From an uncultured Gaiellaceae bacterium (lineage in GTDB: Bacteria; Actinomycetota; Thermoleophilia; Gaiellales; Gaiellaceae): 64,000 bases of DNA. Each line of letters starts with the position of its first letter. The stretch's first letter is position 1. Both the position numbers and the translations under genes were made by a program. Below the pieces are notes generated by a model that was not told where the DNA came from, searched no databases, and saw only the letters and a program-made list of their open reading frames with translations. The stretch lies in NCBI GenBank assembly GCA_963734975.1, contig CAVTJQ010000020.1, positions 113,119 through 177,118 on the forward strand, read 5' to 3'. Below are positions 5,089-22,012 of the stretch, in pieces.

Positions 5089-6398
5089 TCGACGACGATC
5101 CCGTGGCCGCCGCGTCGCGGATCACCGGCGGCCGCGAAAGCCCCGTCTCCGGTGCGCGCGACGGCCGAGACGCCGCCGAAGAAGAGGTTGCGGCCGGCCC
5201 AGTGGACGACGTCCCAACCTGCCGGTGCCTCGCCCTGATACCCGCCCTCGAGATGGAGGACATCACCGTCGACGTGCAGGCGAGGCGCATCGATCGCCTC
5301 GGCCAGCGGAACGCCGCGGATCGCGGCGTCGACAACCTGGGCGATCGCACCAGCGAGCCTTACCGACCCGGCGCTGCCGAGAGCGAGCCGAGGGCGGCCG
5401 TCCTCGAGGACGAGCGTCGGAGTCATCATGCTGGCGAGCCTCGCACCCGGTTGGAGCTCGGCATCGCCAATCACGTCGCGCTCCCCGAGCATGTTGTTCA
5501 GCTGTGCGCCGCCCCGGAAGACGCCGGAGCCCGAGCCCAGTGTCGACGAGAGAGCAGCGGCGTTGCCGTCGGTATCGATCACGGAGATGTGCGTCGTGCC
5601 GGCCATACGCGCGGGCGGCGCGGTCGCATAGGCGTCACGCAGGGCGGCGGCGCGCTCGCTCAGGTTCGTCGCGGACTCGAGGCGCGCGAGCGCCGCGGCG
5701 ACGATCCCGCCGCCTCTCGAGGGCGCGGGCGTCCCGATGACGTCGTGTCCGAGGAACGTGGTGCGGATCGGATCGCGCTCGATCACCGTGTAGGCGGCGA
5801 GATCGACCGCCAGCTCGGGGATCAACTCAACGACGGCTGCAGCGCCGCGATCGCGGATGTGCTCGAGTGTCGGGACGAGGTCGCTCGTGTCGAGACGGTC
5901 GGAGTGACCGTAGATGCGGCGGCCGCCTTCGTCGCGCTGGAGGATCCCGGTCAGGATCAGGTGCAGGAAGGCGTGCTCCTCGCTCACCTCGACCCCGGCC
6001 ACGGCGATCGCGATCGCCGGCTGGACGAGCTCCTCCCACGCCACGCTCCCGTGGCGTCGATGAGCCTCTTCGAGACCCGGGAGGAGCCCGGGCACGGCGA
6101 CCGATGCCTCCCCGACGTGAAAGACCTGCGTCGACGCGTCGCCGAAGTCGATCACGATCTCGTCCATGGCGCCGAGTGGGCGCGTGGGGACGGCGAAAAA
6201 GCAGTCCAAGAGCTGCGGCTCGCCGTCAACGTGGGCGAGGAAGAAGCCCCCGCCGGCAGGCCCGGTCAGGGGGCCTTCCGCCACGAACGCGGCAAACGCC
6301 GCCGCGACGCAGGCGTCGACGGCATTGCCGCCGTTTGCGAGTACCCTGGAGCCAGCTTCGGCCGAGAGTGGGTGCCCCGCTGCGATCGCTGCCTGCAT
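5085..6398 (-). CDS. Gamma-glutamyltransferase family protein
   Basis: ORF 5085..6443. It has HPLSAEAGSRVLANGGNAVDA at the N-terminus and the autoprocessing-site context GTTHISVIDTDGNAAALSSTLGSGSG. I prefer the internal ATG at 6398. There is a 4-nt overlap with the downstream GNAT gene. Confidence 0.85.
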   Translation of the reverse strand: MQAAIAAGHPLSAEAGSRVLANGGNAVDACVAAAFAAFVAEGPLTGPAGGGFFLAHVDGEPQLLDCFFAVPTRPLGAMDEIVIDFGDASTQVFHVGEASVAVPGLLPGLEEAHRRHGSVAWEELVQPAIAIAVAGVEVSEEHAFLHLILTGILQRDEGGRRIYGHSDRLDTSDLVPTLEHIRDRGAAAVVELIPELAVDLAAYTVIERDPIRTTFLGHDVIGTPAPSRGGGIVAAALARLESATNLSERAAALRDAYATAPPARMAGTTHISVIDTDGNAAALSSTLGSGSGVFRGGAQLNNMLGERDVIGDAELQPGARLASMMTPTLVLEDGRPRLALGSAGSVRLAGAIAQVVDAAIRGVPLAEAIDAPRLHVDGDVLHLEGGYQGEAPAGWDVVHWAGRNLFFGGVSAVARTGDGAFAAAGDPRRGGHGIVVE

Positions 6399-6473: not shown

Positions 6474-7491
6474 ATGCCTACGTTTTTCGATCTCCGCAAG
6501 CGCCATCTGCTCCTGTCTCTCGGGACGGTCGCGGTGCTCGTCTTGGTGGCGACCACGCCCCAGCTGCTCGGCGAGCAGGTGGCCGACGGGTTCCACGGGC
6601 TGCTCGTCGCGAGCCCGGCCTGGCTCTGGCTCGCAGCTCTCTCCTTCGCGACGCGCGCTCGTCGCCTCAGGTTGCGCCTGGCGCTCCGCCCTTCGCCGTT
6701 GCGGCGGCGAGCTCGGAAAGGCGGACGCGAGCGCGCGCTACGGCGTGGGCTCGCTCGTGAACGCGGTTGCGCCGGCGAAGCTCGGCAGCGCGCTTCGTCT
6801 CGCGCTCTACTCGCGCGTGATCGTCGGAGAGGGACGGCTGTGGACGACGGGCGGGGTCGCGGCCTCGATCGGCGCAGCTCGCTCGATCTGGGTCGCGGTG
6901 CTGCTCGCGTTCGCGGCGGCGAGCGGCGTCCTACCGGTCTGGCCGCTCGCGCTGCTCGCACTCGGGCTCGCCGTCGCGATCACGGTGGCTGTTCTGTCAC
7001 GCGATCGGAAGCCGAGCGCACGCATCGCGCACGTCCTCGACGCCTTCCGCGCGCTCGGCAGCTGCCCGCGGGCCGCGGCACAGCTCGTCGGCTGGGTCGG
7101 CCTGGCCGCAGCAGCGCGCATCGGCGCCGCGACGGCAATCGCAGCCGCGTTCGGCGTCGAACGTCCGTTGCTGGCCGCACTCCTCGTCGTGCCCGCACTC
7201 GACCTGGCGGGAATCCTGCCGCTTACCCCGGGCAACATCGGAATCGCGAGCGCAGCCGTCGCGTTCGCGCTCCATGCTCACGGTGCGACCAACGGCGCAG
7301 CGCTCTCGGCGGGAATCGCGTTCAGCGCGGTCGAGACGGTGACGAGCCTCGCCTTCGGAGCGGGCAGCGTGCTCTACCTCGCGGCCGGCGCGCCCGGTGC
7401 ACGGCGCTGGACGATGGCCGCGGCCGGCGCGACGGCCTGCCTCGGCCTGGGCGCCGCCTTCGGCGCGACCGTCGTGCTGCCGCTCGTCTAG
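6474..7491 (+). CDS. Lysylphosphatidylglycerol-synthase-TM-region/flippase-like (UPF0104) membrane protein, apparent +1 frameshift near 6651-6658
   Basis: The N-terminus MPTFFDLRKRHLLLSLGTVAVLVLVATTPQLLG...AWLWLAALSFAT is in frame 0 from ATG 6474. The continuation ALVASGCAWRSAL...ARYGVGSLVNAVAPAKLGSALRLALYS is in frame 1 (track ORF 6745..7491). The junction lies in acgcgcgc. Confidence 0.65.
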
Positions 7492-7833
7492 CGCGCGCGG
7501 CGCGGCGCCAGACCGGAGCGCGGGCAGCGGCTCCGCGGATCGGTCGGGATCCGGCGTCGCGAACGACGCATCGGCAAGTGCCCCTTCCACCGGGACGTAG
7601 CCCGTGCACTCGCATGGCGCGGAGCTCAGCGTCTGGAAGTCTCCGATTCTCCTGCGGCACTCACGCCGTCCGCCCTGGACGAAGACCCGCACATGGTCGC
7701 GACGCGGATGCCCGCAGGTATCGCAGAGTGGCGAGCCACCGCAGGTGGGACAGCCGCCGCCATCCGAGATCCAGCGGTGCTTCCGCCGCCTCCAGCTCGC
7801 GCCGCAGTAGCGGCACGCGATCGAGTCACCCAT
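7488..7833 (-). CDS. Putative small Cys-rich (zinc-ribbon-like) protein; 3' end uncertain
   Basis: The internal ATG at 7833 of shadow ORF 6997..7983 gives MGDSIACRYCGASWRRRKHRWISDGGGCPTCGGSPLCDTCGHPRRDH...CECTGYVPVEG. G/C dominates the third codon position. The frame stays open into the convergent gene, so a +1 indel would be needed to end it at TAG 7490..7488. Confidence 0.35.
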
Positions 7834-7876
7834 CGCTCGTGTATTCGACCGCGGGCCGCCGCGACTTGAGGCGACG

Positions 7877-9001
7877 CTACCGACGCAGGAAGCTCGGCGG
7901 CTCGAGCGGGTCCTCTGCTCGAGCCGGGCGACTCGTCGTTCCACTCGAGAAGGTCGGTGCCGGCGTGCGCCTGCGCGTGCCACCGAGACCCGTCGCGACC
8001 ACGGTGACCCAGACCTGACCGGCGAGACGCTCGTCGACCGTGGCGCCGAAGATGATGTTCGTGTCGTCGGTCGCGGCCGCGCGCACGGCCTCGGCTGCGT
8101 CGTTCACCTCGAGCAAGGTCAGGTCCTCGCCGCCCGCGATCGAGAGCAGGATTCCTCGGGCGCCGACGATCTCCGTGTCGATCAACGGCGAGCGGAGGGC
8201 ACGCTCCGCTGCCTGCTTCGCCCGGTCGTCGCCGGTCGCGAAGCCGATTCCCATCAGCGCGGAGCCGGCGTCGGACATGACGGTCCGGACATCGGCGAAG
8301 TCGAGGTTGATCAGCCCCGGCATCGTGATCAAGTCGCAGATCCCCTGGACGCCCTGGCGCAGGACGTCGTCGGCGATCTTGAACGCGTCGAGCATCGACG
8401 TCGAGCGGTCGAGCACCTCGAGCAGGCGGTCGTTCGGGATCACGATCACCGTGTCGCACGCAGCCCGCAGTTCCTCGACGCCCAGATCCGCGGAGGTCTT
8501 GCGCCGGGTTCCCTCGAAGCGGAACGGCGTCGTGACGATGCCGACGGTGAGCGCACCGAGCTCACGCGCGATCTTGGCGACGACGGGCGCGGCGCCCGTA
8601 CCGGTGCCGCCGCCCTCGCCGGCGGTGACGAACACCATGTCCGAACCGCGCAGCGCGTGCTTGATCTGGTCGTACGTGTCCTCGGCAGCGCGGCGGCCGA
8701 TGTCCGGCTCGGCACCCGAGCCGAGGCCCTGCGTGAGCTCGCGGCCGATGTGGATCTTCACTGGTGCGTCCGAGAGCTGGAGCTGCTGCATGTCGGTGTT
8801 GATGGCGACGAACTCGACCTGCGAGATGCCGGCGTCGATCATCCGGTTGACCGCGTTCAGACCGGCGCCGCCGACGCCGACGACGCGAATCACGGCGAGG
8901 TACGACGCGCTGTCGGCACGAGTGGAGTACTCGAGCCGCGGTGCGGGCTCGGGCATCGTCGTGTAGAGGCTCGTGGGCGGCTCGTATGGGCGCTCGCGCA
9001 C
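7877..9001 (-). CDS. ftsZ: Cell division protein FtsZ
   Basis: The ORF contains [21 protein letters not shown], the tubulin signature [21 protein letters not shown], and the C-terminal peptide [11 protein letters not shown]. The start is ambiguous: GTG 9001, ATG 8956, or further upstream via the ORF at 9300 if a 1-nt deletion is assumed. Confidence 0.95.
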
Positions 9002-9300
9002 CGGTTCGGGTGCGGCGACGACGACCGGGGGCGCGGCGTCACCGGCGGAGCAGGCTCTTTCACGCGTGCCGGTGCCGGCGTCGGTGCGGCGGCAGGCTTG
9101 GCGCGCTGCTTGGCAACGAAGTCCGGTACGTGCTCGACCGTCTTCTCCTGAGGCTCCTCCGGGGGCGCGACGGCAGGCGGTGCCGCAGCCACGGGCGGCT
9201 CTTGCGGAGACGCATCGGGCTGTGGCTTCTCGCTCTGCTCGGCCTGCCGCTGAGCGGCTTCGGTCGCACGGAAGAGCTCGGCGAGCGGGCCCTCACGCAT
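8890..9300 (-). CDS. Pro/Glu/Ala-rich ORF between parA-like and ftsZ (either a small disordered protein or a frameshifted N-terminal extension of FtsZ)
   Basis: ATG 9300 overlaps the ParA-like stop (ATGCGTGA). The product is [29 protein letters not shown]...[20 protein letters not shown]. Its last ~110 nt overlap ftsZ out of frame and look non-protein-like. The ftsZ frame is open upstream and reads [20 protein letters not shown]. Confidence 0.4.
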
Positions 9301-10135
9301 GCTCGCGCGATTTCGCGCCACTGAGCACCTCCTTTGCCAGGTCGCGGTAGGCCTGGGCGGCCGTCCCCGACGGATCGTACTTCAGGACGGACGAGCCCTT
9401 CACGGGCGCCTCGGCGTAGCGGACGGTCTTCCGGATCCGCGTCTTGTAGACGAGCTCGCCGAAGTTCTCCTCGAGGATCTCGACTGCCTCGCGGGCGTGC
9501 AGCGTGCGGCTGTCGAACATCGTCGGCAGGATCCCTTCGATCTTCACCTCGGGGTTCAGGTTCTCGCGCACCATCGCGAGCGTGTTCTCAAGCTGTACGA
9601 GGCCGCGCAGCGACAGGTACTCGCACTGCACCGGCACGATCACGCCCGTGGCCGCGACGAAGGCGTTGATCGTCAGCAGGCCAAGCGAGGGCGGCGTGTC
9701 GATGAGGACGAAGTCGTAGCGGTCGCGCACTTCGACCAGCGCTTTCTCCAGTGCGCGCTCACGGCCGATCATGGCCGACAGCGCGAGCTCGGCGCCGGCC
9801 AGGTCGATCGACGACACGGCAACGTCGACCTCGGCCGGATGGATGATCTCGGAGATCGGCAGCCGGTGGACGAGGACGTCGAACATGGAGCGCTCGATCG
9901 CGTCGGGGTTCATCCCCTGGCTCATGGTCAGATTCCCCTGCGGATCGAGGTCGACGATCAGCACCCGGTGGCCGAGCTCCATGAACGCGACGCCGAGGTT
10001 CAGCGTCGTAGTGGTCTTCGCGACGCCGCCCTTCTGGTTGGCGAAGACGATCACCCTCTGCAACGTTGTCTCCTCGGTGGCGGTGTCGGGCCGAACGTTC
10101 GGCCGCGGAAGCAGGCGCATGAGTCCCATGTGCAC
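9293..10135 (-). CDS. ParA/Soj/MinD-family P-loop ATPase (orphan; no ParB gene seen nearby)
   Basis: 280-aa ORF with the deviant Walker A NQKGGVAKTTTTLNLG, then LIVDLDPQGN and FVLIDTPPSLG. Confidence 0.9.
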   Translation of the reverse strand: MHMGLMRLLPRPNVRPDTATEETTLQRVIVFANQKGGVAKTTTTLNLGVAFMELGHRVLIVDLDPQGNLTMSQGMNPDAIERSMFDVLVHRLPISEIIHPAEVDVAVSSIDLAGAELALSAMIGRERALEKALVEVRDRYDFVLIDTPPSLGLLTINAFVAATGVIVPVQCEYLSLRGLVQLENTLAMVRENLNPEVKIEGILPTMFDSRTLHAREAVEILEENFGELVYKTRIRKTVRYAEAPVKGSSVLKYDPSGTAAQAYRDLAKEVLSGAKSREHA

Positions 10136-12591: not shown

Positions 12592-13935
12592 ATGGACAAC
12601 GCTGGCACGCTCACCGTCGGCCCGAAGCGCGTCGACCCCGTTGCGGGGAGCGCGGCGCTTCGGGCACGCGCACAGGACCCGGTGGACAAGCGCGTGTTCG
12701 ATCGCCTCACGCGGCTCGTTGCAGCATTGCTCGAAGCGCCGGTTTCGCTGTTGATGATCTCCGACGCCGACGATCTCGTCTTCGCGAGCTTCGCCGGGCC
12801 GGCGGATCCATGGGGCAGCCTGCGGAGCTTTCCCCTCACGGATGCGTACTGCCAGTACGCGATCGGCAGCCGCGAGCCGTTCGTGGTCGAGGACGCGCTC
12901 GCCGATCCCGTCGTTCGCGACCTGCCCCCGACCACCGACCTCGGAGTCGTCGCCTACCTCGGCGTTCCCCTCCTCACCTCAGGCGGGGAGCCGATCGGCA
13001 TTCTCTGCGCGATCGACCTAGAGGCTCGCTCCTGGAGCGAACGCGACATCGGCGTCGTGAAGGAGCTCGCCGCGACGGTCATGGCCTACATCGAGACTCG
13101 GCCGACCGGGACGGAACGGGCATCGGGAGGATTGAACATCGCGGCGGTCGCCCGCAAGACAGGAATCGCGTCCGACACGCTGCGCAAGTGGGAACGCCGC
13201 TACGGCGTGCTCCGACCCAGTCGGACGCCGGGCGGTCAACGCCGCTACGACGACAACGACGTGGCTCGTGTGGAGTGGCTGCGCGACCGGCTGGCGGAGG
13301 GGTTCCGGATCTCCGAGGCGGCCGCGCTGCTCGATCCCGCCGGCGAGACGGCGTTCGCTTCGGCCGACGAGATGCGCGCAGCGCTCGTCGATGCGGCGCA
13401 CGCCGCAGATCCCGCACGGCTGATCGCGCTCGTCGAGCAGACCTTCGCGCTGAACCCGGTCGAGACGGCGATCGAGGAGATCGTGCGCCCCGCACTCGAG
13501 GAGATCGGCTCCGACTGGGCAGAGCGCAGCGGCGCGATCGCCGAGGAGCACCTGCTGACCGAGACGGTTCGAGCGCGGCTCGAGCGCATGCTCGCGGACC
13601 GGCGGCCCGGCCTCCGCGGCAAGGCGGTGCTCGCCTGCGGCCCGGACGAGCGCCACGACCTCGGCCTGCTCGCGCTCGCGGTGCTGCTCCAGGCGGACGG
13701 CTGGCTCGTGGCCTATCTCGGAGCGGACATCCCGCTCGACGCCGTCCTCGAGCTGGCCGAGCAGATCGAGGCCGACGCGCTGTGCGTGAGCTTCACGCTG
13801 ACCGATTCGTACGAGCGCTTCGTCGCCGACCTCGCGGACGTGACGCTGCCGGATCGGCTCACCGTCGTCGTCGGCGGTGCGGCGGCACCGCAGCAGCGCG
13901 GCCTCGCCGAGATCGTCGCCGGCCTGCGCGCCTGA
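12592..13935 (+). CDS. GAF domain - MerR HTH - cobalamin-binding (CarH/LitR-type) fusion regulator
   Basis: 447-aa ORF with a GAF-like N-terminal region (about residues 30-165). The MerR HTH reads LNIAAVARKTGIASDTLRKWERRYGVLRPSRTPGGQRRYDDNDV. The helical-bundle motif is WAERSGAIAEEH (W-x9-E-H), and the B12 loop is PDERHDLGL (E-x-H-x-x-G). Confidence 0.85.
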   Translation: MDNAGTLTVGPKRVDPVAGSAALRARAQDPVDKRVFDRLTRLVAALLEAPVSLLMISDADDLVFASFAGPADPWGSLRSFPLTDAYCQYAIGSREPFVVEDALADPVVRDLPPTTDLGVVAYLGVPLLTSGGEPIGILCAIDLEARSWSERDIGVVKELAATVMAYIETRPTGTERASGGLNIAAVARKTGIASDTLRKWERRYGVLRPSRTPGGQRRYDDNDVARVEWLRDRLAEGFRISEAAALLDPAGETAFASADEMRAALVDAAHAADPARLIALVEQTFALNPVETAIEEIVRPALEEIGSDWAERSGAIAEEHLLTETVRARLERMLADRRPGLRGKAVLACGPDERHDLGLLALAVLLQADGWLVAYLGADIPLDAVLELAEQIEADALCVSFTLTDSYERFVADLADVTLPDRLTVVVGGAAAPQQRGLAEIVAGLRA

Positions 13936-14376: not shown

Positions 14377-15958
14377 TCAACCTCGCGCGCGGTTGACTGC
14401 GGCGCAGAAGCGACCGTAGGTCTCGAGCTCGGCCTCGACCGGCTCGAGCACGAGCGTCAGGGCCGAGCTCTCCAGTCGCTTGCGCATCGAGCGGGCAGCA
14501 GCGCGCGCACGCCTGCGCGCGCCGCCTCCGTTCAGGAGACGTGTCAGGAACGCCACCGCGATCCCGCCGATCACACCGCCGAGCAGGAGACCGGTCGGCA
14601 GCGGCACGCCCCGCGCCTCCGGCACCGGCAGGACGTCGCCCAGGCGCAGGTAGTCGAGCAGGAACAACGCAAGCAGCCACAACACGCCGATCGCGACGGC
14701 GGCGGCCAGCAGCGTCTGCAGCGCGCCCGCGAAGCGCCACCAGCGCGGCCGCCGCAGCTGGAGGTCGGCTCCTGCGACAGCGCGGTCGAGCTCCGCGGCG
14801 ACCTGCGACTCGCGGCTCGTGGCGGCGCTTCGGACGAGTGCAGGCCATGGCTCCGGCAGCCCGGCCGCCGCCGCACTGCCCAGCGCTCGCGCCGCGTTCT
14901 CCACCTGCGCGACCTGAACCGCCGAGGCCGGCGGCAGCGACGTGTGGACTCGTTCCGACGAGTCGCCGCCGAGCCGCAGACGGCGGAGCGGGTCCGGCCG
15001 GAGGCGCTTGAGCCAGCGCACGAACGGCCACCCGGTCGCGAGCACCCCGCTCCGGCGGTGAGCGCGCTCCACGGCCCGGGTCACCGTCGCCACTCCCGCT
15101 GCGTCCTCGAGCGCCCGGCGAAGGCGCGCGTGCTCCTGCCGGCCGACGCGGCCGCCGTCGCCTCCGCAGGCGGCACCGAGACGCCCCGTCGCCGCCTCCA
15201 CGTCCGCCTCGAGCCGCGCGACGACAGCCTCTCGCGCCGCGACTCGCTCCGCCAGGAGCCGCCGCAGCTCGGGCAGCCCCGCGCCCGTGACGGTCGAGAC
15301 GGCGAGCACCGGAACCCGGTCGAGCCCATTGCGCTCGAGCAGCCGCACGAGGTCCGCCCGACACGATGCCAGCGCCTGAGCGTCGAGCAGGTCGGCCTGG
15401 TTGAGCACCACCGCCATGGCGTCGCCGTAACCGACGAAGCGCCGCAGGTAGCCGTCGTGCCAGGCCGCGTCCGCGTACTTCTGCGGATCGACGACCCAGG
15501 CGACCAGGTCGACGAGCTCGACCAGCCGGTCGACCTCCAGCCGGTGGGCGGTCTCGACGGAGTCGAAGTCGGGCAGGTCGAGCAGGACGAGGTCGTCCAG
15601 ATCGTGGCCGCGGGGCGTCGCCGTCGAGGCGGTGCCGCCGCGGCACCTCGAGCCAGTCGAGGAGCGCGGTGGCTCCGTCGCCGCCCCAGACCGCTGCCGC
15701 AGCCGCGGACGTCGTCGGCCGGCGCCGCCCGACCGACCCGAGGTCGGAGCCGGCGAGCGCGTTGAAGAGCGAGGTCTTGCCGGCGCCCGTCGGGCCCGCG
15801 AGCGCCACGACGGTCGATTCCACCCCGAGACCGAGTCGTGCTCCCGCCTTCGTGACGACGGCCCGGCCCGGAGCGAGGAGCTCGTCGTCGAGTCGCCCTT
15901 CGGCCAGCGACGTCGCCTCGGCAAGCGCCGCCAGCCGCACGTCGAGCGTGGCCGTCAC
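14377..15958 (-). CDS. Dynamin-like/HSR1-type GTPase with C-terminal TM hairpin; apparent +1 frameshift near 15606-15618
   Basis: The N-terminus VTATLDVRLAALAE...VVALAGPTGAGKTSLFNALAG...LLDWLEVPRRHRLDGD is in the frame of track ORF 14225..16333. The continuation GHDLDDLVLLDLPDFDSVETAHRLEVDRLVELVDLVAWVVDPQKY... is in ORF 14377..15924. The GTG start overlaps the upstream stop (GTGA). Two TM helices lie near the C-terminus. Confidence 0.8.
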
Positions 15959-17619
15959 GGGCGAACGGCGGAGGCGGCCGCGCGCACGCGCTCGGCCGCA
16001 TCGGGCCCGGATCCGACCGGGTCGAGCAGCGCGGTGAATCGCTCGGCCTCGGCGTCGAGCAGCCCGCGGACGCGGGCGAGCAGGTTCTCGCGCGCTCTGG
16101 CCGCCAGCGCCCGGACCGCCTGGTCGCCGAAGATCGCCTCGAGCACCTTCTGCCCGACTGCAGACGTGCCGCCGGCGATCACCACCTCGGCACCGGTGAG
16201 CCCACCGGTCTGGACGAAGACGGCGAGCATGACCGTGAGGCCCGCGCCGTTCACGCCGAGCGAGGCGAGCCGCGCAGTCGTGCGCTTGCTCATCCCCTCG
16301 CTGCGGACGAGCTCGAACACATCGCCCTGCCACTCGCGCACCTCGCGCTCGGCCGCCTGGGCGAGCCCCGGCGAGGCCGTGTCGAGACCGGATCCGTCCG
16401 CGAGCAGCTCGCGGCCGCCGCCCGTCTCGCGCCAGACCCCTGCGACTCGACCTGCGGCGCGGTCGGCCGCCGCCCGCACCACCGCCTCGACACCGGTCTC
16501 CACCGCCTCCTTCACCTCGTCGTCCGCCGTCGGCTTACCCGAGACCACGCTGCGGAGGCGATCGCGCGCCCACGCTACGCGCGACTCGAGCGCGCGCATT
16601 ACGTCGCCGGTGCCCACGACCTCGTACCAGCGCGCCAGCACCTCACCGCGCAGGAGCGAGCCGCTCCCGAGCGACTCGCCGACCTCCTCGGCCGCACGTT
16701 CGTACTGACGATCGGCCGCGCCCTGAAGCTCCGCGACGGCGGCGGCCTGCGTGTCCAGCGCCCGCGCGACCGTCTCGGCGCGGGGACGGACGCTCGCGAG
16801 CGCACCCGCGAGCGTGCGCTCGATCAGCTCGGAACGCGCCCCGGCATCGGCGGTGAGCGCGTCGAGCCAGCTGCGCACGGGCGCGAGGGCCGCGGCCGGA
16901 AGCAGGCCCCGCTCGAGCACCGTCTCGGGGACGACGAGCAGGTCCGTTCCCGCCAGCCCCTGGTCGGCGAGCATCTGCTCCAGGTGAGCGGTCACCTCTG
17001 CGGCCCCGTCGGCCGGGACGCGGTTCAGCACCACCGCGAGCGTGGTGCCACGGTCGCGCGCGGCGTGCAGGAGCTCCCACGGGACGGCGTCCGCGTACCG
17101 AGCCGCCGTGGTGACGAAGAGCCAGGAGTCGGCGGCGGCGAGGAGCTGTGCCGCCAGCGTTCGGTTCGCCGCGGCCACCGAGTCGATGTCGGGCGAGTCG
17201 AGGAGGGCGAGTCCCGGCGGGAGCGCAGCCGTCGGCACGAGCTCGAGCCCGCCCGGTCCGGCGGCGCCGCCGGTCGTGCGGGACAGCTCCGGGAGCACGC
17301 GCTCGTCCTCGAACCAGCGCAGGTCGCCCGGATTGCAGGCGAGGACGGGCGCACGCGTCGTCGGCCGGAGGACGCCGGCGGCGCTCACCTCGGCCCCGAC
17401 GAGGCTGTTCAGGAGCGTCGACTTCCCGGCGCCGGTCGAGCCGCCCACGACCATGAGCAGCGGCGCGTCCATCTGGCGGAGGCGCGGCAGCAGGTAGTCG
17501 TCGATCTGGGCGACGAGCTCGTCCCGCACCAGGCGCGCCGCCGGCGCGTCCGTGAGCTCGAGCGCGAGGCGCAGAGGAACGAGCTCGTCCCGCAGGCCCT
17601 CGAGGGCTTCTGTGCTCAT
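15955..17619 (-). CDS. Dynamin-like/HSR1-type GTPase (first of tandem pair)
   Basis: 554-aa ORF with the P-loop VVGGSTGAGKSTLLNSL, then LLDSPDIDS and AVVLNRV (NKxD-like). A hydrophobic paddle LGVNGAGLTVMLAVFVQTGGLTGAEVVIAGG lies near the C-terminus. Confidence 0.85.
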   Translation of the reverse strand: MSTEALEGLRDELVPLRLALELTDAPAARLVRDELVAQIDDYLLPRLRQMDAPLLMVVGGSTGAGKSTLLNSLVGAEVSAAGVLRPTTRAPVLACNPGDLRWFEDERVLPELSRTTGGAAGPGGLELVPTAALPPGLALLDSPDIDSVAAANRTLAAQLLAAADSWLFVTTAARYADAVPWELLHAARDRGTTLAVVLNRVPADGAAEVTAHLEQMLADQGLAGTDLLVVPETVLERGLLPAAALAPVRSWLDALTADAGARSELIERTLAGALASVRPRAETVARALDTQAAAVAELQGAADRQYERAAEEVGESLGSGSLLRGEVLARWYEVVGTGDVMRALESRVAWARDRLRSVVSGKPTADDEVKEAVETGVEAVVRAAADRAAGRVAGVWRETGGGRELLADGSGLDTASPGLAQAAEREVREWQGDVFELVRSEGMSKRTTARLASLGVNGAGLTVMLAVFVQTGGLTGAEVVIAGGTSAVGQKVLEAIFGDQAVRALAARARENLLARVRGLLDAEAERFTALLDPVGSGPDAAERVRAAASAVRP

Positions 17620-17677
17620 GGGCGGGGAATGCCCGGTTTCGACGAATGAGAAAAGCGCGTCTCCGTAGCGACGGAGC

Positions 17678-20600
17678 TCAGGGTCGCAGGACGGCGCGGC
17701 GAGGGCCGGCCAGGAAGCCGGCCTCGACGAGCAGCGGCATGATCTCCGTCTCGATCACCGGTCTGCCGTCGAAGCGCTCGACGGCGAGCCGCTTCGGCTT
17801 GCCGCCGGTCACGGACGCGCCGCGCACGTGCGCGACCAGCGCCTCGATCGCCGGCCGCAGCCACGTCTCGTCGGGCTCGCGGAGCGGCACGAGCGTGCGG
17901 CCGCCGCGCTCGACGAAGAGCGCCGCCTCGCCACCGAGCAGGACGACCTGGGCACCGGCGACGCGTGCCGCCCGCGCACCGGCGCGCCTCGGCCACGGCA
18001 GCGCTGCGCCGTAGGGCTGCGCCGGGTCGGCGGCAGCGAGCACGAGCGGCTCCTCGTCGTCGCCGTCCCGGCCGCGCAGCTCGCGCAGTCGCTCGACCGC
18101 GCCGGCAAGCGCGAACTGGGCGCCGCCGAGCCCTTCGACGAAGTAGCCGCGGCGGCACACGCCGATCGTCTCCAGATCCTTCAGCTCGCCGTAGACCGCG
18201 CCGTAGCCGCCGGGGATGCCCTCGCCGCGGACGCCGTCGCGCGTGACGATCCCCTGCCGCTCGAGCAGGAGCTCGGCGAGCGCGCGCCGGTCGACCCCTT
18301 GTGACTCTGTGTCACCTGCGAACAGCCGCCCGGTGAGCGACCAACGTCCCTGGGTGGAGGTGATCGCGGCGGCGCGGCTGCGCGAGAAGCGCCGCGGGCG
18401 ACCTCGTGACACGGTGTTACGAGGCGTCGCGTAGCGGCGCCCGGCGCGCAGCGGCGTCCACGCGTCGTTCGTCACCTCGCCCGCCCAGACGAGCTCCCAG
18501 AGCGCCGGCAGCGCCGCCTCGGGCTCGAGCTCGGCGGCCTCGACGAGCGGATACCAGAACTCGGCGCTGCCGGTGAGCACCCGGCGGATCGCATCAGCCT
18601 CCTCGCTCTCGGGGGAAGGCGCGCCCGCGGGCTGCCCGAGCAACGGCGCGTCCTCGCGGAAGTAGAGCGCCACACGATCGAGCCCGGCGCCGACCCAGAC
18701 GACCTCGCCCGACGCACAGAGGGCGTCGAGCCAGGCAGGCTGATAGTTGGGCACGCGCCGCGGCAGCACCTCGGACTCCCAGAGCGAGACGGGGAGCGCG
18801 AGCCCCTGGAGCGGGACGAGCGCCTCGCGCAGGCTCGCCCGCCGGTCGATGCCGTGCCAGGCGGGCAGGAAGCGACCGAGCGCAGCCTGCTCCGCCGGCT
18901 CGACTTCCCGGCGCAGCGCGGCGAGCGAGGCCCGTCGCAGGCGCCGCAGCACCTCGGGATCGCACCACTCGCGCTCGGTGCCTCCCGGTCGGAGCTCGCC
19001 GCGTACGAGCGAGTTGTCCCGTTCGAGAGCGTGCAGGAGGTCGGCCACGTCGACGCCGAAGTGCTCGTTGGCCTGCGCGCGTCGTGAACGGCCCTCGGCC
19101 CTTCGCGAAGCGAAGCACGAGCTGGCGCAGCGAGTCGGGCCCGCCCTCGAGGAAGGCCTCGGGCAGCCCGCCGGGCGGCATCACGCCGAGCGCGTCGCGG
19201 TAGCGGCCCGCGTCCTCGGCGGCGAGCAGCCGCGCCTCGCCTGCGAGCCTGATCTCGAGCGCCCGTCGCTCGGCGACGAGCACCGCCGCGAACGCCTCGT
19301 CGTACTCGCCGGGGCGAAGGTCGCCGCGACGGCGCAGCACGTCGTGCAGCTCGTCGGGGTCGCGCGGGCTGCCGCGGAGCTGCGCCTCCACGTCGGCGAG
19401 CGCATCCGCGTCGATCAGCTCGCGCAGCTCCTCCTGCCCCAGCAGCTCCCGCAGCAGATCGCGGTCGAGCGAAAGTGCCTGCGCGCGCCGCTCGGCCGGC
19501 GGCGTGTCGTCCTCGTACATGTACGTCGCGACGTAGTCGAAGAGGAGCGACGAGGCGAACGGCGAGGCCGACACGGTCTCGACGTCGACGAGGTCGAGCT
19601 CGCGCGTCTGCAGCCCACGCAGGATCTGCTTCAGCGCGGGCAGGTCGAAGACGTCCTGGAGACACTCGCGGTAGGTCTCGAGCACGATCGGGAACGAGCC
19701 GTATTTTCTGGCTACCTGCAACAGCCCTTGTGCCTTCAGACGCTGCTGCCAGAGCGGCGTGCGCTGACCCGGGCGGCGGCGCGGGATCAGCAGGGCGCGG
19801 GAGGCGTTCTCGCGGAAGCGCGCGCCGAAGAGCGCAGTCTGCCCCACCTCGTTGACGACCAGCTCCTCGATCTCGTCGGGTGGGATCAGCAGGTCGGCAA
19901 CCGGCGGCAGCGCGTCGGTGTCCGGCAGGTGGAGCGCGATCCCGTCGTCCGACCAGATCGACTGCACCTCGATCCCGAGCGCGTCCCGCAGGCGGGCCGC
20001 GAGCGCCATCCCCCAGGGCGCGTGCACCCGGCCACCGAACGGCGTCAGGATGCAGACGCGCCAGTCGCCGATCTCGTCACGGAAGCGCTCGACCACGATC
20101 GTCCGGTCGGATGGCACCACGCCGGTGGCTGTCTGCTGCTCGCGCGAGATACGTGAGCAGGTTCGCGGCTGCCCGCTCGTCGAGGTGGTACTCGTCGCGC
20201 AGCCGAGCGAGGCCGACGTCGTGGCTCAGAGCCGACAAGCTCCCTCGAAGCCGCGCCGATCTTCTCGCCCAGCTCGTACGGCCGGCCGACGCCCTCGCCC
20301 TTCCAGAACGGGACGGCGCCGGGAACGCCCGGCGCGGGCGAGACGAGCACGCGGTCGCGCGTGATCTCCTCGATCCGCCAGCTGGAGGCGCCGAGCAGGA
20401 ACGTCTGACCCTGTCGCGCCTCGTAGACCATCTCCTCGTCGAGCTCGCCGACGCGCCCTCCGCCGTCCACGAGGTGGACGCCGAAGAGGCCGCGATCGGG
20501 GATCGTGCCCGCGTTCGTGACGGCGAGCCGGCGAGCGCCGGTGCGGCCTCGGATCACGCCCGCGGTGCGATCCCAGACGATCCGCGGCCGCAGCTCGGCG

Positions 20601-21940
20601 AACTCGTCGGAGGGATAGCGGCCGGCGAGCATGTCGAGCACGTTCTCGAGCTGCTCGCGCGAGAGGTCGGAGAAGTTGTAGGCGCCGCGGACGAGCCGGT
20701 GCAGGTCGTCGACCTCGATCTCGTCGTCGGCGGCGATCGCGACGATCTGCTGCGCGAGCACGTCGAGCGGGTTGCGCAGGATCGATGTCTCCTCGATCGC
20801 GCCGTCGCGCATCGCGCGCGCGACGACCGCGCACTCGAGCAGGTCGGCGCGGAACTTGGGGAAGATGCGGCCCTTCGAGACCGACGCGAGGTCGTGGCCG
20901 GCGCGGCCGATCCGCTGCAGGCCCCGTGCGACCGACTTCGGGCTCTCGACCTGGATCACGAGGTCGACGGCGCCCATGTCGATCCCGAGCTCGAGGCTGG
21001 AGGTCGCGACGAGGCACGGGATCTGCCCCGCCTTCAGCAGCTCCTCGATCTCGACCCGCTGCTCGCGCGCGAGCGAGCCGTGGTGGGCGCGCGCCAGAAC
21101 TTCTTCCGCGAGCTCGTTCAGCCGCAGCGCGAGCCGCTCGGCGAGCCGGCGGTTGTTGACGAAGACGATCGTCGAGCGATGCGCGCGGACGAGCGCCAGC
21201 AGCTCGGGGTAGATGGAGGGCCAGATCGAGTTGCCGCTCTCGTCGCCGGGCTCGCGCATGTCCTCGACCGGCACGACGACCTCGAGGTCGAGCTCCTTGC
21301 GCGTGCCCGCGTCGACGAGCTGGATCGGGCGGTCACCGCTGACGAACCGGCCGATCTCCTCGAGCGGGCGCTGGGTCGCCGACAGGCCGATGCGTTGCAT
21401 CGGTGCCGGCAGAAGCTGGTCGAGCCGCTCCAGGCTGACCGCGAGATGGGCGCCGCGCTTCGTTCCCGCGACCGCATGCACCTCGTCGACGATCAGCGTC
21501 TCGATCGTGCCCAGGATCGAGCGGGCCTGCGAGGTCAGCATCAGGAAGAGCGACTCTGGCGTCGTGATCAGGATGTCGGGCGGCGTGCGCACGATCGCCG
21601 CCCGCTCCTTCTGCGAGGTGTCGCCCGTGCGGACGGCCACGCGGAGCTCGGAGCGGAGACCGGCGAGCGGCCCGCGCAGGTTCCGCTCGATGTCGTAGTT
21701 CAACGCCTTCAGCGGCGAGACGTAGAGCAGCCGGAGACCCTCGCCCGGGTTCTGGGTCAGCCGGTCGATCCCGTAGAGGAAGGCGGCGAGCGTCTTGCCC
21801 GATCCCGTCGGCGCCTGGATCAGGACGTTGCCTCCGGTCGCGATCGCGGGCCAGCCGGCGACCTGCGCGGGGGTCGGGCCGGCGAACGCCCGCTCGAACC
21901 ATTCGCGCGTCCGGGGCGAGAACGGCGCGAGCGGATCCAT
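17678..21940 (-). CDS. lhr: Lhr-type large ATP-dependent DEAD/DEAH helicase, split over four frames by three apparent +1 frameshifts
   Basis: Track ORFs 20045..21967, 18594..20120 and 17678..19048 are consecutive Lhr segments. They carry QAPTGSGKTLAAFL, DEVH, VATSSLELGIDMG, then VVPSDRTIVVERFRDEIGDWRVCILTPFGGRVHAPWG, then DLLHALERDNSLVRGELRPGG. A short middle frame gives HDVGLARLRDEYHLDERAAANLLTYL. The junctions are near 20221-20230, 20139-20148 and 19074-19084. Confidence 0.85.
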
Positions 21941-22012
21941 GCTCACAGGGTACCCCTCGCCCGCCACCGTCCTTCGCGGACGTGTCTGGGGTCTGACCCC
22001 GGACGTGGCCGG

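Follow-up and report, generated by a model that had tools for sequence, protein, structure and literature searches.

The 64-kb stretch of an uncultured Gaiellaceae genome analyzed here (64,000 nucleotides of contig CAVTJQ010000020.1, hereafter the window) carries on its minus strand a gene for a ParA-like ATPase immediately followed by, and overlapping, the gene for the cell division protein FtsZ. Gene order from nei to a Cys-rich open reading frame (ORF) was read by ORF and Pfam scans, and all features named in a preliminary description of this DNA were recovered at the positions it gave, on the minus strand, including the upstream nei gene and two hypothetical ORFs of 407 and 68 residues. 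The same description had remarked that ftsZ stands apart from the other dcw (division and cell wall) genes, and no dcw gene was found among the 42 window ORFs scanned; parB, min genes, and a second ftsZ were likewise absent from these ORFs, and neither scpA nor scpB was seen among them. Consensus scans for promoters and terminators and a search for Rfam families returned nothing in the region.

For comparison we used a species-level scan (one genome each) of approximately 38 loci from metagenome-assembled genomes of Gaiellales and Gaiellaceae, in which FtsZ matched, from residue 1, a query with the window's two ftsZ reading frames fused (see below). By gene order and sequence, the parA-like gene and ftsZ constitute a two-gene module conserved across the order Gaiellales, class Thermoleophilia, with the ParA gene directly upstream of ftsZ in every Gaiellales locus. 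Compared for synteny and for FtsZ N-termini, as had been suggested, the related genomes contain the linker region of the preliminary description as an extension of FtsZ, and the parA–ftsZ junction is the sole invariant part of the neighborhood.

The ftsZ gene is complete and spans 7877..9321 (minus), encoding approximately 481 residues once one base is restored. Its core, listed as an ORF at 9001-7877 (minus), contains the Tubulin/FtsZ GTPase domain and the FtsZ C-terminal domain (7985..8890, minus), which match PF00091 (4e-49; 167.9 bits against a cut-off of 33) and PF12327 (8e-32; 109.9 bits against a cut-off of 27), and the orthologue at locus L034 scores 431 bits with the TIGR00065 ftsZ model (cut-off 295). 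After a short C-terminal linker of about 30 residues, a canonical FtsZ C-terminal peptide can be read from the sequence at 7880..7912 (minus); it is conserved as LEPPSFLR and kept in 35 of 36 aligned orthologues. In FtsZ this peptide docks membrane anchors. The predicted product is a normal FtsZ, with GTPase core, C-terminal domain, and C-terminal peptide, that stands behind an N-terminal extension.

In the window as assembled, extension and core lie in different frames, which we compared by three-frame translation of positions 9330-8860. The frame of the linker ORF (frame A) is Pro/Glu/Ala-rich, turns past approximately 9030 into Arg/Ser/Pro-rich out-of-frame text, and ends at 8890; the FtsZ frame is that of parA and is open from the ParA stop onward. 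One added base at approximately 9027-9037 joins the two. Frame A tracks the orthologue as far as PAPPVTP and the FtsZ frame tracks it from APPVVV on, and a DNA alignment of the window with the orthologous contig L082 (85% identity) shows, between approximately 9046 and 9015, a length difference not divisible by three. Comparison of frames and DNA with the orthologue places the frame-breaking indel, one base missing from a G/C run (ccgcgccccc), at 9027..9037. Third-position G+C (GC3) frame plots gave no frame resolution inside the Pro/Ala/Glu linker, and the frame was settled by homology.

The orthologues are in frame. FtsZ is a single uninterrupted ORF of 417-523 residues in 34 of the approximately 38 loci, all beginning with the same peptide, and the fused sequence, searched against 5.8 billion proteins, returned more than 100 full-length proteins of 455-500 residues with 100% query coverage and up to 90% identity. 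The closest of these, P0242, comes from L082, a contig assembled from short reads with MEGAHIT, where gene calls give a ParA of 278 residues and an FtsZ of 483 residues with a 29-nucleotide overlap and nothing between them; L081 is arranged alike, and its ParA is also called at 278 residues. Short-read-assembled orthologues are single ORFs in 14 of 14 cases, as are most of the others. Other assemblies do contain frameshifted copies (L029, L035, L036, and numerous short “proteins” from long contigs), with tails of the same kind of out-of-frame text, and they break at differing positions, which favors homopolymer errors and disfavors a programmed shift. A frameshift conserved at one site, as programmed ribosomal frameshifting would entail, was not found among these orthologues.

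That the linker ORF and ftsZ are one gene split by a one-base assembly indel is therefore strongly supported by the sequence comparison. The preliminary description had raised this fusion, proposing that a base missing near 9020-9045 separates FtsZ from an extension of about 100 residues, and on this point it was borne out by the 34 loci and the more than 100 database proteins; its other suggestion, a separate small adaptor ORF, is refuted by the single ORFs of the orthologues. A start of FtsZ at 9001 or 8956, which it had also considered, does not fit, since from the ParA stop to 9001 the FtsZ frame contains no start codon, and the position equivalent to the 8956 Met is not conserved, being M or L. 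A biologically real split, whether as small adaptor plus FtsZ from 9001/8956, as programmed ribosomal frameshift, or as decaying ftsZ pseudogene, has in its favor that the window as assembled carries both frames and a C5 run at the junction, and is very improbable given the intact orthologues, the scattered break positions elsewhere, the out-of-frame character of frame A past 9030, the lack of a conserved start for a shorter FtsZ, and at least four further frame breaks in conserved genes of the window (two in lhr, one in the LPG_synthase_TM gene, and one in the Cys-rich ORF). The GC-rich disordered linker is a homopolymer-indel hotspot in long-read assemblies, and Gaiellales FtsZ is therefore frequently annotated wrongly, as a truncated FtsZ preceded by a short “hypothetical protein.”

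The linker ORF had been described as starting at an ATG that overlaps the ParA stop. This sequence, ATGCGTGA at 9300-9293, is present, and the ATG is not the true start: a GTG at 9321 lies seven codons upstream. Across loci the ftsZ start is ATG or GTG, the product begins M-A-R-(K/R/N), as in MARKRAS, and the start together with an AAGGAGG Shine-Dalgarno sequence is conserved in 36 of 37 loci. In the window the Shine-Dalgarno sequence occupies 9328..9334 (minus), within the codons for ParA L-A-K-E-V-L and 6-7 nucleotides 5' of the start. Gene callers in public data choose the same upstream start. Translation of ftsZ thus begins from a ribosome-binding site in ParA codons, 29 nucleotides inside parA, so that both proteins are made together. 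Within the 29-nucleotide dual-coding stretch the FtsZ frame is kept via synonymous changes (e.g., CGN to AGA for Arg), whereas the ParA tail varies in its residues and in the position of its stop; preservation of the FtsZ frame while the ParA tail drifts points to constraint on the FtsZ N-terminus. Taken together, we regard these structural conclusions on the parA–ftsZ locus as close to certain.

Four short predicted proteins (P0030, P0101, P0109, and P0119) fuse the FtsZ N-terminal peptide to the ParA C-terminal tail (...AYRELAKEVL...REHA). They are probably short-contig assembly loops over the parA/ftsZ overlap.

The extension is 85-190 residues long and consists of an N-terminal peptide, a Pro/Ala/Glu-rich linker, a TVEHVPDF motif, and a PEPAPRLEY segment. 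The peptide (9244..9321, minus) comprises 25-26 residues with a short helix predicted at approximately 14-28, has 12-15 invariant columns including R3, R5, and R9, and carries five Arg/Lys within its first 18 residues. Compared pairwise over 32 orthologues, the peptide averages 88% identity, the FtsZ core 80%, and the linker 36%. The linker is 38-143 residues long and rich in Pro (28%), Ala (19%), and Glu (12%), with no structure predicted for it. An AlphaFold2 model of full-length FtsZ, built with 36 close homologues, shows a helix at 14-28 at low confidence and no secondary structure over 29-147. The second motif, TVEHVPDF (9118..9141, minus), lies within the disordered linker and occurs in 23 of 32 orthologues; in a closer orthologue set T60, V61, H63, V64, and F67 are invariant. 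At L023 (approximately 5500-6100) the RREEAALEETVEHV segment of the extension, second motif included, is tandemly duplicated. The third motif, RPYEPP..(L/M)PEPAPRLEY (8927..8998, minus), abuts the GTPase domain, forms conserved columns in the orthologue alignment, and is absent from the N-termini of the non-Gaiellales FtsZ compared.

A role of the peptide as a membrane-targeting helix was considered and rejected, as its mean hydrophobicity is at most 0.16 and its hydrophobic moment modest; together with the five basic residues, these low values make a membrane helix unconvincing. The peptides by which ParA/MinD activators act are short, conserved, and basic, sit at the extreme N-terminus, and are followed by a flexible region (PMC7993993), and the FtsZ extension has each of these properties. 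Its layout matches that of the ParA/MinD activators.

The partner gene encodes a deviant Walker-A ATPase of 278 residues (9293..10129, minus; alternative GTG start at 10135) and has no adjacent parB. The protein matches Pfam AAA_31 (7e-57) as well as CbiA and MipZ, and an exact-sequence look-up with each of the two alternative starts found no record. Each of 36 orthologues keeps the Walker A (NQKGGVAKTT), A' (DLDPQGN), and B (IDTPPSLG) motifs unchanged. The Arg of a TVRYAEAP segment lines up with NVRLAEAP in Soj, where it is the residue by which B. subtilis Soj binds DNA non-specifically. Judged from these motifs, the ParA-like protein looks active and DNA-binding.

Its best relatives in the PDB are the M. 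smegmatis structures 4pfs/5ihp (201.8 bits, 46% identity), with which it shares KGGVAKTT, IDLAGAE, and TVR(Y/F)AEA, followed by Soj-type proteins at 198.6 and 189.3 bits (identities of 41 and 47%, the latter to Thermus Soj). The 4pfs/5ihp protein is probably the orphan ParA MSMEG_3743 of the Rv1708/PldP group; with Soj scoring almost as high, the window protein is at most a candidate orthologue of that group. A cognate ParB is not encoded next door: the downstream gene is ftsZ, and no ParB-type domain was found in the window ORFs or in the gene calls of L081 and L082. Two other identities were tried and rejected. The minD_bact model gave 52.9 bits against a cut-off of 212.9, the tail is hydrophilic and variable without a C-terminal amphipathic helix, and minC and minE were not seen among the window ORFs scanned. 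A MipZ orthologue is contradicted by the partial profile match (PF09140, 3e-12, profile positions 1-147 of 262) vs. 7e-57 for AAA_31.

Profile searches with the peptide returned 582 matches in 5.8 billion proteins and 1004 representatives in 1.8 billion. Among the best 120 of the 582 and selected members of the best 150 of the 1004, every match inspected was this FtsZ locus, whether as N-terminal fragment, as copy truncated by a frameshift, or as read-through version, and the source names were Gaiellaceae and Gaiella only. In 14 FtsZ loci from outside the Gaiellales (other Thermoleophilia, Acidimicrobiia, and Actinomycetes) FtsZ has an ordinary short N-terminus with no extension, and no ParA gene lies upstream. 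Our literature searches found nothing on FtsZ of Gaiellales or Thermoleophilia, or on this arrangement; FtsZ with a ParA-coupled N-terminal peptide is a lineage-specific variant not described in the searchable literature.

Parts of the arrangement recall known systems. In PomXYZ of Myxococcus xanthus the nucleoid-bound ParA/MinD-type ATPase PomZ positions the Z-ring, with PomX and PomY as its activators, and PomX has a conserved, positively charged N-terminal peptide of 22 residues followed by an Ala/Pro-rich unstructured region (PMC7993993). Here, in contrast, peptide and linker are fused to FtsZ, the module has no gene for a PomX/PomY-like scaffold, and there is no sequence similarity to PomX. 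MipZ of Caulobacter crescentus is a DNA-binding ParA-like ATPase that acts directly on FtsZ (10.1101/766287; PMC9178275), and the window protein has a weak Pfam match to it; MipZ, however, needs ParB and inhibits FtsZ via the core, and Caulobacter FtsZ has no such N-terminal peptide. ParABS offers a short basic ParB N-terminal peptide before a flexible region; the N-terminal region of ParB supplies an Arg finger that activates ParA (PMC9178275), and the ATPase here is Soj-like. The peptide profile nevertheless retrieves no ParB from PDB sequences. ParB N-termini such as ...GLGRGLxALL or MAKGLGKGINALF match R-E-G-P-L-A-E-L-F only loosely, as a lead. Orphan ParA-like proteins of other Actinomycetota, PldP in C. 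glutamicum and Rv1708/MSMEG_3743 in mycobacteria, affect cell division or septum placement (PMC3989709, PMC10482377). The ATPase here is likewise an orphan of this phylum, but FtsZ of those hosts has no N-terminal extension. The genes of that group presumably adjoin scpAB rather than ftsZ. In heterocyst-forming cyanobacteria, FtsZ also has a lineage-specific conserved N-terminal extension, reported to be needed for normal polymerization and division (PMC6175996); its sequence is unrelated, and the abstract mentions no linked ParA.

Translation of parA and ftsZ is invariably coupled, and the basic peptide is extremely conserved, co-occurs with ParA, and has the general layout of ParA/MinD activators (PMC7993993). 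On these grounds we suggest that the N-terminal peptide may both contact the co-encoded ParA-like ATPase and activate it, a possibility that we rate as serious and just short of probable. ParA-ATP dimers would coat the nucleoid, and the peptide would bind the ATPase and stimulate hydrolysis, as the N-terminal peptides of ParB, MinE, PomX, and McdB do. FtsZ polymers would show many copies of the peptide on flexible linkers, and FtsZ would therefore act as both cargo and activator; on a ParA-ATP-coated nucleoid the polymer could then resemble a ParB-parS complex or a PomXYZ cluster in its behavior. By such a diffusion ratchet a ParA gradient would move or confine the nascent Z-ring on the nucleoid without a separate adaptor. 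The ring might be placed at mid-nucleoid (a positive net effect, cf. PomZ), or its assembly might be blocked in regions dense in ParA (a negative one, cf. MipZ/MinCD), the sequence being compatible with either. More tentatively, then, a ParA-type ATPase may have Gaiellales FtsZ as its cargo and its activator alike, with a Z-ring that positions itself without ParB, MinC/E, PomX/Y, or MipZ-ParB.

Several observations weigh against a peptide that activates ParA. Searched against all PDB chain sequences, the peptide profile found no ParB, Spo0J, MinE, or other activator at E<=10, and the resemblance to ParB is therefore architectural, not statistical; the ParB-like N-terminus proposed in the preliminary description persists as a general activator layout and is not statistically detectable as sequence similarity. 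The net charge of the peptide is just +2, and the AlphaFold2 model of FtsZ is poor (mean predicted local distance difference test score of 52), for which reason only its secondary-structure outline was used. Peptide and ParA co-occur in one lineage only, so that all occurrences represent one evolutionary event and not independent replication. Adjacency of parA and ftsZ may reflect co-expression alone, and PldP, the closest studied relative, has been tied to Tat/TatA dynamics and not to FtsZ (bioRxiv 10.1101/2025.07.02.662783).

Somewhat unlikely, though the better placed of the alternatives, is that the peptide serves another role, i.e., contact with a different divisome or anchor partner, tuning of FtsZ polymerization as by the N-terminal peptide of Anabaena FtsZ, or binding of DNA or membrane, in which case any effect of ParA on division would pass via the FtsZ core (as with MipZ) or via other partners. 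An N-terminal FtsZ peptide that affects polymerization is known from heterocyst-forming cyanobacteria (PMC6175996), the extension here holds two more conserved motifs without an assigned role, and statistical similarity to ParB peptides is lacking. Set against this, the hydrophobicity values above (mean <=0.16, modest moment) make the peptide ill-suited as a membrane helix, ParA is the sole invariant neighbor, with overlapping coding and the ribosome-binding site inside parA, and ParA/MinD activators have as their hallmark just such a basic N-terminal peptide ahead of a disordered linker (PMC7993993).

We consider it improbable that the operon serves co-expression only, with ParA positioning some other cargo (the chromosome via a ParB encoded elsewhere, Tat, or other complexes) and having no direct relation to FtsZ. 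Such a role would suit a protein about equally near Thermus Soj (47%) and M. smegmatis 4pfs/5ihp (46%), and would parallel both the link of PldP to TatA dynamics (bioRxiv 10.1101/2025.07.02.662783) and the interaction of Rv1708 with ParB and ScpA (PMC10482377). Against it stand a 29-nucleotide overlap with an internal ribosome-binding site in 36 of 37 loci where all other neighbors vary, and the appearance of the peptide coinciding with ParA linkage.

A direct action of ParA on FtsZ through the peptide would matter beyond this locus. Gaiellales abound in soil, and Gaiella occulta is their one cultured representative. Actinomycetota are without Min and Noc, and it is unclear what their orphan ParA-like proteins do (PMC3989709, PMC10482377), which leaves Z-ring placement in the phylum an open question. 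The module described here pairs an orphan ParA-like ATPase with an FtsZ that bears an apparent built-in ParA-activating peptide, and thereby offers a concrete and testable link. If the proposal is true, it would be the most minimal ParA-based system of division-site selection, one in which the ParA gradient mechanism acts directly on a cytoskeletal polymer and which, with two proteins, would be open to in vitro reconstitution.

Downstream of ftsZ lies the Cys-rich gene (7488..7833, minus; approximately 113 residues), with the pattern CxxC-x17-CxxC-x5-CxxCxH...H...C...CxC. The motif starts at 7833 as first described; the end at 7488 does not hold for the window as assembled, where the TAG is out of frame owing to a +1 indel near 7525, and does hold in the closest relative, L082, whose intact 113-residue orthologue ends at a TAG overlapping the stop of the convergent LPG-synthase gene. 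The family (112-114 residues; C7, C10, C28, C31, C37, C40, H42, H47, C59, C74, and C76 invariant) matches no Pfam family and has 13 members in 5.8 billion proteins, all from Gaiellaceae where named. The gene sits in a segment of approximately 390 nucleotides that is missing from L034 and L081, and has no homologue in other orthologous loci, being absent from most. The most distant homologue (54% identity) lies at L083 3994-6620 among small ORFs beside a phage-type integrase and not beside ftsZ, which suggests that this small gene travels with a mobile element. The Cys-rich gene is a real small gene and, by this distribution, an incidental neighbor of the parA–ftsZ module and not a part of it.

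The order nei – 407-residue hypothetical – (68-residue hypothetical) – parA – ftsZ – ... – ggt is broadly syntenic across Gaiellales loci, while the gene 3' of ftsZ differs between them. In the window, nei is at 12555-11797 upstream of parA, the 407-residue ORF at 11788-10568, and the 68-residue ORF at 10470-10264 (all minus), and both hypotheticals are kept across Gaiellales. In the larger, many residues are invariant, among them a GGFDWDD motif and DRWELSLF, and no Pfam, NCBIfam, or informative PDB relative was found for it; the smaller has no Pfam or NCBIfam match. Inserts of variable size occur between these genes and parA, with a cupin gene there in L081 and L082 that the window does not have, and because such inserts separate the 407-residue gene from parA we left it out of the module.

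Two neighboring genes are broken in the window. The lhr helicase gene extends over three frames of the minus strand, at 20045-21967 (DEAD, Helicase_C, WH_Lhr), 18594-20120 (DEAD_assoc, WH2_Lhr), and 17681-19180 (WH3, WH4), and is a single gene of 1431 residues in L081; this split implies at least two more frame-breaking indels and an indel-prone assembly. The LPG_synthase_TM gene (6490-7491, plus), convergent with ftsZ and the Cys-rich ORF, changes frame at approximately 6647-6655, residues 36-75 of its relatives matching one frame and residues 78-356 another.

A regulator gene at 12592-13935 (plus), divergent from nei, combines GAF, MerR helix-turn-helix, and B12-binding domains in a CarH/LitR-like architecture and is conserved in L081, L082, L009, and L034. 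Farther upstream, 4-8 kb from parA–ftsZ, a pair of dynamin-like GTPase genes (Dynamin_N, MMR_HSR1) occupies 14380-17754 (minus), with the same placement in the two closest relatives (L081 878-4128, L082 879-4174). The dynamin-like proteins DynA and DynB of Streptomyces stabilize Z-rings.

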